From Pseudomonadota bacterium (lineage in GTDB: Bacteria; Pseudomonadota; Gammaproteobacteria; Pseudomonadales; Oleiphilaceae), in the NCBI GenBank assembly GCA_051750305.1, contig JBNJJM010000009.1:32188-96187 (forward strand): 64,000 bases of DNA. The letters run 5' to 3'. The notes under the pieces are model-generated. The model made no database searches. It had not been told where the DNA came from and saw only the letters and a program-made list of their open reading frames with translations. How positions within the stretch are numbered: position 1 is the first letter of the stretch; each line of letters starts with the position of its first letter. Position numbers and translations under genes: made by a program. Below are positions 24,827 through 29,284 of this stretch, piece after piece.

Positions 24827-27244
24827 TCAGGCTTGTACGCGATGGTTGGTGCGCAACCATTTCTCGAATTCGGCTTCCGGGACGGGGCGGCTGTAGAAAT
24901 AACCCTGAGAATAGTCACAACCCTGCTGCTGCAGGAAATGGGTCTGGGCTTCCTCTTCCACTCCTTCCGCAATCACATGAAGACCCAGGCTGTGCGCCAT
25001 GTTGATGATTGCTTTCACCAGAGACGCATCTTCCTGCTCTTTCATGACGTCCTGCACGAAGGACTTGTCGATCTTCAGGGTATCAAAGGGGTAGCTCTTA
25101 AGGTAACTGAGCGCCGAATAACCGGTACCGAAATCATCCACTGACAGCCGGATGCCAGCTGCGTCCAGCTGTTTCAGGATATCCGCCGTCTCGATCGTGT
25201 TATCAAGGATCAGTCTTTCAGTGATTTCCAGTTCCAGCTTCTCTGGCGCCAGCCCGCTGGTTTTCAATGCATTCATAACCGCGGCAGTAAACCCCTGGTC
25301 GCGGAACTGCCGCGGCGAAACATTGACCGAGACTCCGATATCGGTGCCGGTGATTTCCCGCCATCGGACCGCTTTCTGACAGGCTTCGTGGAGCACCCAT
25401 TCGCCAATGGGAATGATCAGGCCGGTTTCCTCTGCCAGCGGAATGAAGCGATCGGGCATCACCATGCCCATGCTGGGATTGTTCCAGCGTAGCAGCGCCT
25501 CGGCGGAACACAGGGCTCCGGTGTCGGTGCGCACAATCGGCTGGAAGTAGAGCTCGAATTCGTTCTGTTCCAGCGCCCGACGCATTCTCGATTCCATCTG
25601 GAGCCGTTCATGGGATACTTCGGTCATCTCCGGTGCGAAGTGGGCGAACGAGCTCTTGCCCTTATGCTTGGCCTGATACATCGCGGCATCCGCGTGCTGG
25701 AGCAGGGTGCCGCTGTTATCGGAGTCGCTCGGGAATATGGCAATGCCGATGCTGGTGGTGACAAAGACTTCCTGGCCGTTCAGCAGGTAGGCGGGCTCGA
25801 AGGTTTTCAGGATGCGCTCGGCCACCTGGGAGGTCGCCTCGGGGCCGGCCAGACCGGGCAGAATGACCAGAAACTCGTCGCCGCCAAGGCGCGCTACCGT
25901 GCTCGTTCCCCGCAGGCAGCTGGAAATGCGGCGTGCGGCCTCAATCAGCAGATTGTCGCCGGCATCGTGGCCGAGGGTGTCATTAATGTGCTTGAAGTTG
26001 TCCAGGTCCAGGAACATGACGCCAACCAGAGAGTTCTCCCTTCGCGCCTGGGCCAGTGCCAGTTTGAGGCGGTCGAGGGCCAGCATCCGGTTGGGCAGTC
26101 CGGTGAGGATGTCGTAGTTCGCCTGTCGCAGCAGCTGCTGTTCGTAGCGCTTGCGGATGCTGATGTCCTCGCCAAGAATCAGGTAACCGGTCGCGTCTCC
26201 GTTGGAGCCCTTGATCGGCGTAACGATCAGTTGTTCCCAGAAGCGCTCGCCGTTACGCCGCACGCTGTTGACCTCGCCCTGCCAGACACCCACCCGCTGA
26301 ACCTGAAGCCGGATGGACTGCCATAAGTGTCGGGTTTCCCGGTGCTCCATGGTGTTATCAGACAATGCACCGGGGTGCTTGCCAAGAATGTTGTTGGCGT
26401 CGTAGCCGGTTAACTGGGTGAACTTCTGGTTGGCGAATTCGATACGCCACTGACGGTCACAGATCAGTACGGAGGAGGGGCTCTGCTCGATCGCTTTGGA
26501 GAATTTTCGGATTTCGGCGGCGTCACGTTCCTGGCGCGCGGCATCGTCGTTGAGACGTTCGCGCATATGGTTGATGGCCTCTGTAACCTGAGCCAGCTCA
26601 TCCCGACGATTCAGGGGAGTATCCGGCCGGTCCAGACGCAGCGGGTTGGTTGGATTGGTCAGGGAAAATTCCCGCGCGTAATTGGCCATGGCCGACAGGT
26701 GTCTGGCGACAAAGTGCTGGAATATCCAGATGATCAGGATGGAGACCAGGAACGTTTTGAAGAACTGGGTAACGAGAATCAGGCCTACTTTGCGTTTCAT
26801 CTCGTTGTAAACGCGGTTGAGGTCGGCCGTTACTGTCAGTTCGCCGAGCTTGAACATCTCATCACCCTGATGCACGAGGTCAAAGCTGTGGGAGGTGGTC
26901 TGTGATTCTCTGGGGACCTCCCCCATGACCAGTTCGGAGTCCGGCTCTATCCGCAGCCTCAAATGAACCACGTCCGGCATGCTGAGGATGCCTTCCATCT
27001 GGGTTTGCAGCAGTTTCTGATCAAGCGCCCACAAACTTCGCGCCAGGCTTGAGGCGTAGCCGGTTTCCACGACCATCATGCGATTGTCGATCTGGGTCAG
27101 ATCCTTGCGGTAATCGGAGTACAGCTGAATAGCGGAGGCGATGAGGGTAAACAGCGAGCTGAAAAGCAGAATCCATGCAAGAAGCCGGAATGACAGGGGA
27201 GACCCCGTTCGGAAACGTTGGAGACGTGTCGACAGTTTTTGCAT
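24827..27244 (-). CDS. Membrane-anchored HAMP-PAS-GGDEF-EAL c-di-GMP protein
   Basis: Two TM segments flanking a periplasmic domain, RRDELAQV HAMP, PAS, ARLGGDEF, AEALLRW, DDFGTGYS. No RxxD I-site (RGTS). Confidence 0.93.
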   Translation of the reverse strand: MQKLSTRLQRFRTGSPLSFRLLAWILLFSSLFTLIASAIQLYSDYRKDLTQIDNRMMVVETGYASSLARSLWALDQKLLQTQMEGILSMPDVVHLRLRIEPDSELVMGEVPRESQTTSHSFDLVHQGDEMFKLGELTVTADLNRVYNEMKRKVGLILVTQFFKTFLVSILIIWIFQHFVARHLSAMANYAREFSLTNPTNPLRLDRPDTPLNRRDELAQVTEAINHMRERLNDDAARQERDAAEIRKFSKAIEQSPSSVLICDRQWRIEFANQKFTQLTGYDANNILGKHPGALSDNTMEHRETRHLWQSIRLQVQRVGVWQGEVNSVRRNGERFWEQLIVTPIKGSNGDATGYLILGEDISIRKRYEQQLLRQANYDILTGLPNRMLALDRLKLALAQARRENSLVGVMFLDLDNFKHINDTLGHDAGDNLLIEAARRISSCLRGTSTVARLGGDEFLVILPGLAGPEATSQVAERILKTFEPAYLLNGQEVFVTTSIGIAIFPSDSDNSGTLLQHADAAMYQAKHKGKSSFAHFAPEMTEVSHERLQMESRMRRALEQNEFELYFQPIVRTDTGALCSAEALLRWNNPSMGMVMPDRFIPLAEETGLIIPIGEWVLHEACQKAVRWREITGTDIGVSVNVSPRQFRDQGFTAAVMNALKTSGLAPEKLELEITERLILDNTIETADILKQLDAAGIRLSVDDFGTGYSALSYLKSYPFDTLKIDKSFVQDVMKEQEDASLVKAIINMAHSLGLHVIAEGVEEEAQTHFLQQQGCDYSQGYFYSRPVPEAEFEKWLRTNHRVQA

Positions 27245-27405
27245 GCCGTTACTTCAGCCACCCTGACAGTGAAACGTGGAACGGATAGGTAGTTACCCTC
27301 AGGACTATAGCAGCAGTTTCTTGCAAGTGCCTTGCAAATACAGGAAAAATCGAAAGAAATGTGGTCAGGTTCCGGCTTTTGGGAATGATATATCCGACAT
27401 GCGGG

Positions 27406-27447
27406 TTGATGCAGATCAATACAGGCCAGACGGGTCGGGCGTAATCT
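27406..27447 (+). promoter_or_regulatory. FNR/Anr-dependent class II promoter (FNR box 27406-27419, -10 TAATCT 27442-27447)
   Basis: Perfect TTGAT-GCAG-ATCAA. Centre 27412.5 is 41.5 bp upstream of the start site (about 27454) implied by the -10 element. Confidence 0.85.
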
Positions 27448-27485
27448 GAGAACCATCAAGTTATGGAACTGTTGGAGATCGGAAT

Positions 27486-27641
27486 ATGTATATGGACGCG
27501 GTCGTTATAGCCGGTATTGCTACAGTATTACTGATGGTGGGCTTTCTTGTGGCGGTGGGGGTCTTCGTGATGAGAGACGCGAAGCACCAGAAGCAGACTG
27601 AGGGCAAGAGAGCCCAGCACCCGACTGGTAAGGCAGTCTGA
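27486..27641 (+). CDS. 51-aa single-TM peptide, CcoM-like (cbb3 oxidase small subunit family)
   Basis: MYMDAVVIAGIATVLLMVGFLVAVGVFVMRDAKHQKQTEGKRAQHPTGKAV*. GGAG RBS and FNR box upstream. Pattern D-x-V-V-x-A-G...L-M-V-x-F...F-x2-[RK]-D matches recalled Pseudomonas CcoM. Below the ORF-track length cutoff. Confidence 0.72.
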   Translation: MYMDAVVIAGIATVLLMVGFLVAVGVFVMRDAKHQKQTEGKRAQHPTGKAV

Positions 27642-27652
27642 CTGAAGAAAAT

Positions 27653-27728
27653 TGGCGTCCCCTAGGGGGTTCGAACCCCTGTTGCCGCCGTGAAAGGGCG
27701 GAGTCCTAGGCCACTAGACGAAGGGGAC
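27653..27728 (-). tRNA. tRNA-Glu(TTC)
   Basis: Reverse complement GTCCCCTTCGTCTAGTGGCCTAGGACTCCGCCCTTTCACGGCGGCAACAGGGGTTCGAACCCCCTAGGGGACGCCA, 76 nt with CCA. Confidence 0.97.
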
Positions 27729-27815: not shown

Positions 27816-28385
27816 TCAGGATTGCGGATTATTCAGGCAATGCTTCAATTCGCTGGCAAGGTTGTCGAAAACCACCAGCGCACCTTCATCCTCATACAAT
27901 CGGTATAATGCCGTCGCCATGGTGTGATGGACCGGTGTCAGGCTGGACTTCACGTCAGGCAACGGCGCGCTCATTATGGCGGCCAGGGTGATTTCGTACC
28001 TGACCTTGTTTTCGCCCGCGCAGAAATGAAAGCTGCTTTCGCGGCTGCCCGCTTCCGGCATGCCGTTGTGTCGGAACACCTGTCGTGCGCAGGCCGCGTA
28101 CTCTGAATGAATTGTCGAATAGGTCTCGATAAGCCCGTCTGTCCGTGACAGCTCAAGCAGGCTGTCGACGCGCTGTTGGGCTGGCGCACTGATGTCGGGC
28201 AGCGAGGCCTTGAGTACGTTTTCATCCAATCCGCGAGAAGCCAGTTGTAATACCGTCAGATATTCTCCCGCAATCAGGCTGCAGGACTCGTAGCTGTGCA
28301 CGGCAGTGCCCGCCAAAGGGGCTTTTCCCGGCACCAGGACGGCCAGGGCGACGGCAGTGAGAAAGGGGAGGCAGGTCGCTTTCAC
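27816..28385 (-). CDS. Hypothetical exported protein with two Cys-flanked internal repeats
   Basis: GTG start overlaps the upstream TGA (GTGA). Signal-peptide-like MKATCLPFLTAVALAVLVPG. Four Cys in the mature region. Confidence 0.72.
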   Translation of the reverse strand: MKATCLPFLTAVALAVLVPGKAPLAGTAVHSYESCSLIAGEYLTVLQLASRGLDENVLKASLPDISAPAQQRVDSLLELSRTDGLIETYSTIHSEYAACARQVFRHNGMPEAGSRESSFHFCAGENKVRYEITLAAIMSAPLPDVKSSLTPVHHTMATALYRLYEDEGALVVFDNLASELKHCLNNPQS

Positions 28386-29284
28386 CGCACACAATCCGCC
28401 AACGCTTCCCGCAGTTCGGGGTGCTGGAACGTGAAGCCCTGCTGCAACAGTTTTTCGGGCATCGCCTGCTGGCCGGTGAGCAGCAACCTCGACATCTCAC
28501 CCAGCGCCAGTTTCAGGACCGGCTCGGGGGCGGGAAACACCGCGGGCCGGTGCAGAACAGCGGCGAGACAGCGGGTGAATTCCCGGTTAGTCACAGGGTT
28601 TGGGCTGACCACGTTGTAGGCGCCGGTGGCCTGTTCTGATTCCAGCATGAACATCAACGCTGAAACGACATCGTCCCGGTGAATCCATGGCATGTATTGC
28701 TGCCCGGAGCCGAGGCGCCCGCCCAGGCCGAGGCGGAAAGGCAGGAGCATGCGCTGCAGAAAACCACCGCCCGGACCGGCGACGACTCCGGTTCGCGACA
28801 GGCATACGCGTACGCCCTCGGCCTCGAGTTCCAGTGCCTCGGCTTCCCAGTCCTTACACAAGCGGTGGCTGAATTCGTCATTGGGGGGCGTCGCCTCAGT
28901 GACCACTGCGCTGCCCTGATCACCATAGAAGCCGACGGCTGAGCCGGAGACCAGGACCCTGGGGGCCGATGACCAGCTTCTGGCGGTCGCTACCAGTTCG
29001 CGGGTAAGGGCGATGCGGCTGTCTCTGAGTTCCTGTTTGCGTTGTTCCGACCAGCGTTGGTCCGCGATACCTTCCCCTGCCAGGTTGATGACCGCATCAA
29101 AGCCGGGATGCTCCTGTAACATGGACAGCCTGGCGACGGCCTCAACGCGGCCACAAATCGCCTTTACGTCGGCCTCATTGCGCCGACTCAGCACCGTGAG
29201 GTTGTATCCTTTGGCGATGAGCCTCGGGCAAAGTACCTGGCCGATGAAACCGGTGCCCCCGGTGACAAGAATGCGCTTGCTCAT
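28382..29284 (-). CDS. TIGR01777 family NAD-dependent epimerase/oxidoreductase (YfcH-like)
   Basis: RILVTGGTGFIG, INLAGEGIA..RW, SGSAVGFYG, MPWIHRDD, LLLTGQ. Confidence 0.93.
   Translation of the reverse strand: MSKRILVTGGTGFIGQVLCPRLIAKGYNLTVLSRRNEADVKAICGRVEAVARLSMLQEHPGFDAVINLAGEGIADQRWSEQRKQELRDSRIALTRELVATARSWSSAPRVLVSGSAVGFYGDQGSAVVTEATPPNDEFSHRLCKDWEAEALELEAEGVRVCLSRTGVVAGPGGGFLQRMLLPFRLGLGGRLGSGQQYMPWIHRDDVVSALMFMLESEQATGAYNVVSPNPVTNREFTRCLAAVLHRPAVFPAPEPVLKLALGEMSRLLLTGQQAMPEKLLQQGFTFQHPELREALADCVR

Follow-up and report, generated by a model that had tools for sequence, protein, structure and literature searches.

The 64,000-nucleotide stretch of DNA that we analysed (hereafter the window) very probably carries a Marinobacter ccoM, encoding a one-helix subunit of cbb3-type cytochrome c oxidase that would pack on CcoN, be synthesised at low oxygen from a class II Anr/FNR promoter and end in a disordered tail. 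According to the model that we propose, ccoM would be monocistronic and driven by an Anr/FNR-activated promoter, and falling oxygen would lead to synthesis of the peptide alongside the products of ccoNOQP, nap and anr. The peptide would cross the membrane once, with its N-terminus outside and its C-terminus inside, would most likely pack against helices VIII/IX of CcoN in the sole cbb3 oxidase of the genome, and would stabilise the complex with catalysis unchanged, as in Pseudomonas stutzeri. Its basic, Gly/His/Lys-rich cytoplasmic tail of 16-20 residues, predicted to be disordered, would be kept in length and composition and not in sequence. The gene and the parts of its product are as follows:

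27486 to 27641, forward strand: ccoM, 51 codons plus stop (family model NF041600, structure chain 5DJQ_N, pN/pS of the core, AlphaFold2 helix)
27474 to 27477, forward strand: Shine-Dalgarno core GGAG, 8 nt 5' of the ATG at 27486
27498 to 27572, forward strand: predicted transmembrane helix, residues about 5-29 (alignment to 5DJQ_N, hydropathy, residue tallies)
27585 to 27638, forward strand: predicted cytoplasmic tail, residues 34-51, basic, hydrophilic and of low complexity; typical of the genus and variable in sequence

Judged from its sequence, the open reading frame at 27486-27641, whose 51-residue product is MYMDAVVIAGIATVLLMVGFLVAVGVFVMRDAKHQKQTEGKRAQHPTGKAV, is the Marinobacter orthologue of ccoM. 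The original prediction had proposed a ccoM homologue and had named similarity to CcoM by HMM as a check; the product passed it over the full length of NCBIfam NF041600 ("cytochrome c oxidase subunit CcoM"), a curated equivalog model with a cut-off of 40 bits, scoring 54.8 bits with model positions 1-34 of 34 aligned to residues 1-34. This is the sole match to the model in the whole genome. Among PDB chains, the only significant match was chain N of 5DJQ, the CcoM helix of P. stutzeri Cbb3-1 (E 1.5e-6); a search with the family profile recovered the same chain at E 2.7e-18, with a profile that contained 34 residues of the 5DJQ sequence itself. A collection of 5.8 billion proteins held 62 relatives, 35-63 aa long and mostly of 45-57 aa, among which all the named ones come from Marinobacter and many are labelled CcoM by NCBI/UniRef; the organism is accordingly assigned to Marinobacter. 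The NF041600 proteins of M. goseongensis, M. lutaoensis, M. vulgaris and M. salexigens are orthologues that are 59-80% identical to this one; synteny, promoter and type of tail are the same in these species, and only the sequence of the tail differs. That a CcoM occurs outside Pseudomonas, as had also been predicted, is true, and is new when set against the 2016 paper on the P. stutzeri protein (PMC4742706) but not otherwise, given that NCBI/UniRef already name many Marinobacter CcoM proteins.

Comparison within the genus shows that the frame is coding. Over 46 distinct Marinobacter loci, the core (codons 2-33) has a pN/pS of 0.17, with a pS of 0.72 and synonymous sites near saturation; the frame and the start codon are kept, the proteins begin with a conserved MY(M/T/L)D, and a GGAG, GAGG or AGGA core lies within -18 to -5 of the start in 41 of the 46. 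A chance ORF or non-coding leader is ruled out by the HMM score, the low core pN/pS and the conserved start codon and ribosome-binding site. The frame and its GGAG had been correctly placed by the original prediction, and conservation in sister genomes, which it had listed as a further check, was found in these 46 loci, the ORF being absent from four complete genomes. The nearest sampled species, judged by a neighbouring protein, is M. lipolyticus AESS41 (95% amino-acid identity). An entry in the protein collection that bears the marks of the protein encoded in this window has only a 35-aa form starting at Met17 (window 27534-27641), which would halve the transmembrane helix. The HMM alignment, the ribosome-binding site and the conservation support the full 51-aa start over Met17, and the shorter form is probably why the gene had earlier been seen as unannotated.

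Mean Kyte-Doolittle hydropathy is +2.75 over residues 5-29 and -1.94 over residues 30-51, the latter with six K/R against two D/E, in agreement with the single hydrophobic helix and basic tail that had been predicted. AlphaFold2, run on a 40-sequence alignment, likewise predicts one helix, confident over residues 2-33 (pLDDT 88-98 over residues 1-30). We infer an N-out/C-in topology from the positive-inside rule and from homology to P. stutzeri CcoM, a 36-aa subunit with that orientation (PMC4742706). The first 34 residues align gaplessly to CcoM of P. stutzeri ZoBell (PstZoBell_05036, 5DJQ chain N; PMC4742706), and the single helix, its predicted topology, D4, G10, T13, M17, F20, F27 and the R/K30-D31 motif are all kept. 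The two proteins differ in length (51 vs 36 aa), in the Gly/His/Lys-rich tail of 16-20 aa present here, and in two substitutions, F24 to Val and W29 to Met, the latter replacing the lipid-anchoring Trp of the P. stutzeri protein.

The crystal structure places P. stutzeri CcoM on helices VIII/IX of CcoN, held through T13, M17, F20, F24 and F27 and touching W284, M287, M291 and F322 of CcoN (PMC4742706). Deletion mutants have a less thermostable complex and a longer lag when denitrifying, with heme spectra and oxidase activity unchanged (PMC4742706). The published contact pattern consists of conserved M17 and F20, with F, V or L at position 24 (PMC4742706). Here, T13, M17, F20 and F27 are retained and position 24 is Val, one of the allowed variants; all of 48 distinct CcoM sequences have F20, 36 have M17 and 44 have V24.

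The genome contains one ccoNOQP operon, located on contig C2; the window is on contig C9, which agrees with the earlier remark that no ccoNOQP genes lie within it. The ccoN product scores 743.6 bits against TIGR00780 (cut-off 583), and the operon ccoQ is a genuine FixQ (39 bits, cut-off 29). CcoN aligns gaplessly, with an offset of one residue, to chain A of 3MK7/5DJQ, and has the same residues, W285, M288, M292 and F323, where P. stutzeri has the contacts W284, M287, M291 and F322. Two other aligned cbb3 CcoN chains have them as well, and because the stretch as a whole tends to be conserved their retention proves little: they are a necessary feature of a CcoM docking site, present here and non-discriminating. 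As in P. stutzeri, ccoM stands apart from ccoNOQP behind an Anr-type box, in a genome that also encodes a cbb3 oxidase with CcoQ. The two organisms differ in that there is one cbb3 operon here and two in tandem there.

The original prediction of a longer C-terminal tail holds for the length, 51 aa here against the 35-39 aa published for CcoM in Pseudomonas (PMC4742706); the tail is nonetheless a fast-evolving trait of the whole genus and not peculiar to this genome. Lengths in Marinobacter range over 43-53 aa (49-53 in 44 of 46 loci) and those in other families of the order over 36-47 aa, and the tail itself measures 16-20 aa in 44 of the 46 Marinobacter loci. A product of 51 aa falls outside the published range, which reflects the sampling of 2016; the NF041600 HMM does not use length. 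Tails in the 46 loci average 18% Gly, 16% His and 16% Lys (together 50%), with a mean net charge of +2.2. Their pN/pS is 0.77 on a positional alignment, a figure that unaligned indels may distort. Compared with M. lipolyticus AESS41, 30 of the 33 core residues are the same and only 5 of the 18 tail residues, the divergence in the tail consisting of in-frame indels plus substitutions. With an AlphaFold2 pLDDT of about 50, the tail is predicted to be a disordered basic extension, and by the positive-inside rule and analogy with the topology of the P. stutzeri protein (PMC4742706) it would lie in the cytoplasm. Its function, if any, would depend on composition and not on sequence.

Upstream of the gene we found two elements of a candidate promoter:

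27406 to 27419, no strand: candidate Anr/FNR box, perfect palindrome TTGATGCAGATCAA (TTGAT-GCAG-ATCAA), starting 80 nt 5' of the ccoM ATG
27439 to 27449, forward strand: candidate -10 block GCGTAATCTGA with the hexamer TAATCT at 27442-27447, read from the sequence and conserved at a fixed spacing from the box

Class II promoters of E. coli FNR and Pseudomonas Anr carry TTGAT-N4-ATCAA centred at -41.5. The box here is centred at 27412.5, so that a class II arrangement predicts a transcription start at about 27454 and a -10 element at -12 to -7, which is exactly where TAATCT (27442-27447) stands; we infer a start near 27454. Both parts of the promoter that had been claimed at the outset, the perfect TTGAT-N4-ATCAA and a TAATCT at class II spacing, were thus confirmed in the sequence. 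The candidate promoter resembles class II FNR/Anr promoters in its match with the consensus, in a putative -10 placed as a -41.5 site would predict and in the presence in the genome of a cognate regulator that has Fe-S cysteines and a box of its own. A generic sigma-70 scan called no promoter at ccoM, as expected of a promoter that lacks a -35 element.

By chance, 0.04 perfect boxes would be expected in the window, which has one (4 of 100 shuffles had one), and about 1.1 in the 4.02-Mb genome on its base composition, which has six. Conservation is the stronger argument for the box. All 46 distinct Marinobacter loci have it with 0-2 mismatches at -77 to -89, mostly at -79 to -81; the distance to the ATG is -79 to -81 in 39 of 48 distinct loci when two from other families are included. 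When the 46 loci are anchored on the box, the TTGA and TCAA half-sites are invariant (2.0 bits), most of the spacer and the 30 columns to the left of the box carry about 0-0.4 bits, and a GCGTAAYCTGA block follows at a fixed distance 3' throughout the genus. Outside Marinobacter, 14 of 19 CcoM homologues from ten other families of the order have a box with 0-1 mismatches in the 140 nt upstream, in most cases between -67 and -91; by chance, roughly 0.004 would be expected per locus. An Anr-type box is a property of the CcoM family in most of the homologues examined. In P. stutzeri the box has one mismatch, whereas it is perfect here, and the published case for Anr control of that gene was drawn from this "putative" box, TTGAT-N4-gTCAA (PMC4742706). 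The original prediction had treated such control as established along with the rest of what is known of CcoM; the small cbb3 subunit encoded apart from ccoNOQP stands as established, and Anr control in P. stutzeri is at the level of inference (PMC4742706).

A suitable regulator is encoded in the same genome. It is an Fnr/Anr protein of 248 aa that scores 250.6 bits against the NF008365 Fnr subfamily model (cut-off 228) and has an N-terminal cysteine cluster, C17-x2-C20-x5-C26. Its gene lies outside the window (G000:C8:95096-95875, G000 being this genome), and a perfect TTGATATGAATCAA box starts 33 nt 5' of its ATG, which suggests autoregulation. Another perfect box, at G000:C5:397923-397936, starts 71 nt upstream of a gene for a 57-aa NapE (TIGR02973, 72.4 bits) and brings periplasmic nitrate reductase into the putative regulon of ccoM. 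The six perfect boxes of the genome are accounted for by the regulator gene, napE, ccoM, a 181-aa ORF with a secreted-looking product, the start of a 263-aa ORF and one interval between two ORFs, which by eye we take to resemble map and rpsB. The box upstream of ccoN is degenerate; it reads TTGACCTGAGTCAT, begins 84 nt 5' of the ATG and is followed by CATACT at class II spacing (L001 2993-3006, G000:C2). If both boxes are functional, Anr may act more strongly on ccoM than on the oxidase operon.

Two neighbours flank the unit, the first as context only and outside the CcoM unit:

24827 to 27244, reverse strand: divergent gene with CHASE5, HAMP, PAS, GGDEF and EAL domains (by Pfam)
27653 to 27728, reverse strand: tRNA-Glu(UUC) gene, convergent, its 3' end 11 nt after the ccoM stop

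The GGDEF-EAL gene adjoins ccoM in 55 of 57 loci, and the convergent tRNA-Glu gene lies downstream of ccoM in 46 of 46, at a gap of 8 to 122 nt in the five loci for which distances are given. This setting differs from that in P. stutzeri, where the neighbours of ccoM are a gene for DNA repair and one for type II secretion. A search for an intrinsic terminator between ccoM and tRNA-Glu found none, so that transcription of ccoM would continue antisense through the tRNA gene. Beyond the latter, the reverse strand has a 192-aa ORF (window 27816-28394) that belongs to no Pfam family; with only 4 of 57 related loci having it beside ccoM, this neighbour is variable. Upstream of the GGDEF-EAL gene lies a stretch of about 57 nt, CTATAGCAGCAGTTTCTTGCAAGTGCCTTGCAAATACAGGAAAAATCGAAAGAAATGTG (window 27306-27362), which can be recognised even in three of four ccoM-less genomes and may be that gene's own promoter or leader. 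The Anr-type box could also serve this divergent gene.

Distribution was followed in an even set of 301 genomes from the same GTDB order, representing 131 genera. CcoM scored above cut-off in 54 of them, which belong to 11 families and 25 of the genera, a far wider range than the "almost exclusively Pseudomonas" of the 2016 paper (PMC4742706). Each of the 54 CcoM-positive genomes also has ccoN above cut-off, compared with 235 of the 301 overall, a co-occurrence that is suggestive only, because related genomes are not independent. In one family (f10), seven genomes (G033, G085, G128, G165, G198, G285 and G309) have ccoM and ccoN on one contig, some 10-12 kb apart, as at C1:1241664 and 1251862 in G085; the genes are not linked in this way in Marinobacter or P. 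stutzeri. Taken together, the distribution, the co-occurrence with ccoN and the Anr-type box support a putative role of CcoM as a low-oxygen accessory subunit of the cbb3 oxidase.

Within Marinobacter, ccoM is present in 17 of 24 sampled genomes. Four complete genomes keep ccoN without ccoM (G010, G004, G005 and G008; loci L061, L062, L063 and L064, respectively), and in these the gap between the GGDEF-EAL and tRNA-Glu genes is 208-255 nt, as opposed to 408 nt. We rejected a hidden, diverged ccoM in the four: neither the HMM nor the protein search gave a match, and the syntenic gap contains no ORF. What looks like a relic of the box persists in two of them (TTGACCTGGATCAA in L062, TTGAGACTGGTCAA in L063), and the other two have lost the box along with the ORF. 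The gene is probably ancestral in Marinobacter and was secondarily lost by deletion. The four genomes with ccoN and a deleted ccoM indicate that the subunit is dispensable, and its secondary loss fits a dispensable stabilising subunit.

These losses also bear on another reading, in which the product is an Anr-induced CcoM-family membrane peptide that in Marinobacter associates chiefly with some other low-oxygen respiratory complex, such as one of nitrate respiration or denitrification, with the tail as the contact. We regard it as unlikely. The P. stutzeri deletion mutant, with no microaerobic phenotype, wild-type oxidase activity and a long lag under denitrifying conditions (PMC4742706), speaks for it, as do the suggestion of Kohlstaedt and colleagues that CcoM interacts with denitrification proteins (PMC4742706), the perfect Anr box of napE in this genome and the Marinobacter species with ccoN and no ccoM. 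Against this, 5DJQ places CcoM directly on CcoN and the interface residues are kept here, ccoM was never found without ccoN in the 54 genomes, and in one family the two genes are linked. CcoN in the cbb3 oxidase stays our preferred partner.

Quite improbable, too, is that the peptide is a diverged CcoQ (FixQ) paralogue which competes for the CcoQ site, so that subunits would be swapped according to oxygen and none added. CcoM and CcoQ/FixQ (PF05545) are both single-helix accessory subunits of cbb3 oxidases with a weak resemblance in the helix: the product matches FixQ at 15.1 bits and is 30% identical over 44 aa to the CcoQ of this genome (E 1e-4, in a single comparison), and the 2016 paper notes residues common to the two proteins and leaves a shared site open (PMC4742706). 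The FixQ score is, however, below the cut-off of 29, whereas the CcoM model was passed, and the authors mention MALDI data, not shown, which suggest an interaction of CcoM with the CcoQ-containing Cbb3-2 as well (PMC4742706). CcoQ/FixQ is a separate family, and we rejected a CcoQ paralogue on the sub-threshold FixQ score and the real, FixQ-positive ccoQ in the ccoNOQP operon of this genome. That the box mainly regulates the divergent CHASE5-PAS-GGDEF-EAL gene, with the small ORF as a passenger, is scarcely credible: the box does lie 162-175 nt upstream of that gene's ATG and leaves a relic beside it in two ccoM-less genomes, but the spacing to ccoM and the -10 on the ccoM side are conserved, the other flank is almost unconserved and lacks a -10 at class II spacing, the box disappeared with the ORF in two other ccoM-less genomes, and CcoM homologues in other families carry the box despite different neighbours.

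A further proposal can be made for Marinobacter. Because it has a single ccoNOQP operon, the organism cannot switch oxidase isoforms as Pseudomonas does. It is conceivable, though we hold it to be doubtful, that it instead remodels its one cbb3 oxidase at low oxygen through Anr-induced CcoM, placed beside CcoQ or replacing it, and that the genus-specific tail adds a function absent from Pseudomonas CcoM, for example metal or lipid binding or the docking of an assembly factor. A tail that keeps its length and composition without its sequence would fit a fuzzy interaction of this sort.

Part of this picture was already available, in the form of a curated NCBI model for CcoM and of sister Marinobacter species annotated with it. 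Our literature search found no paper on CcoM in Marinobacter, the co-mentions being judged unrelated from titles and abstracts. The additions to the 2016 paper are modest: the far wider occurrence of the family, the Anr box across families, the long-tailed Marinobacter variant and the deletion of the gene in some species. The finding raises no new question; it is useful for annotation and for the purification of cbb3 oxidases from marine gammaproteobacteria. For this genome, it corrects a mis-called or missed gene of 51 aa and puts that gene in the putative low-oxygen regulon of Anr.
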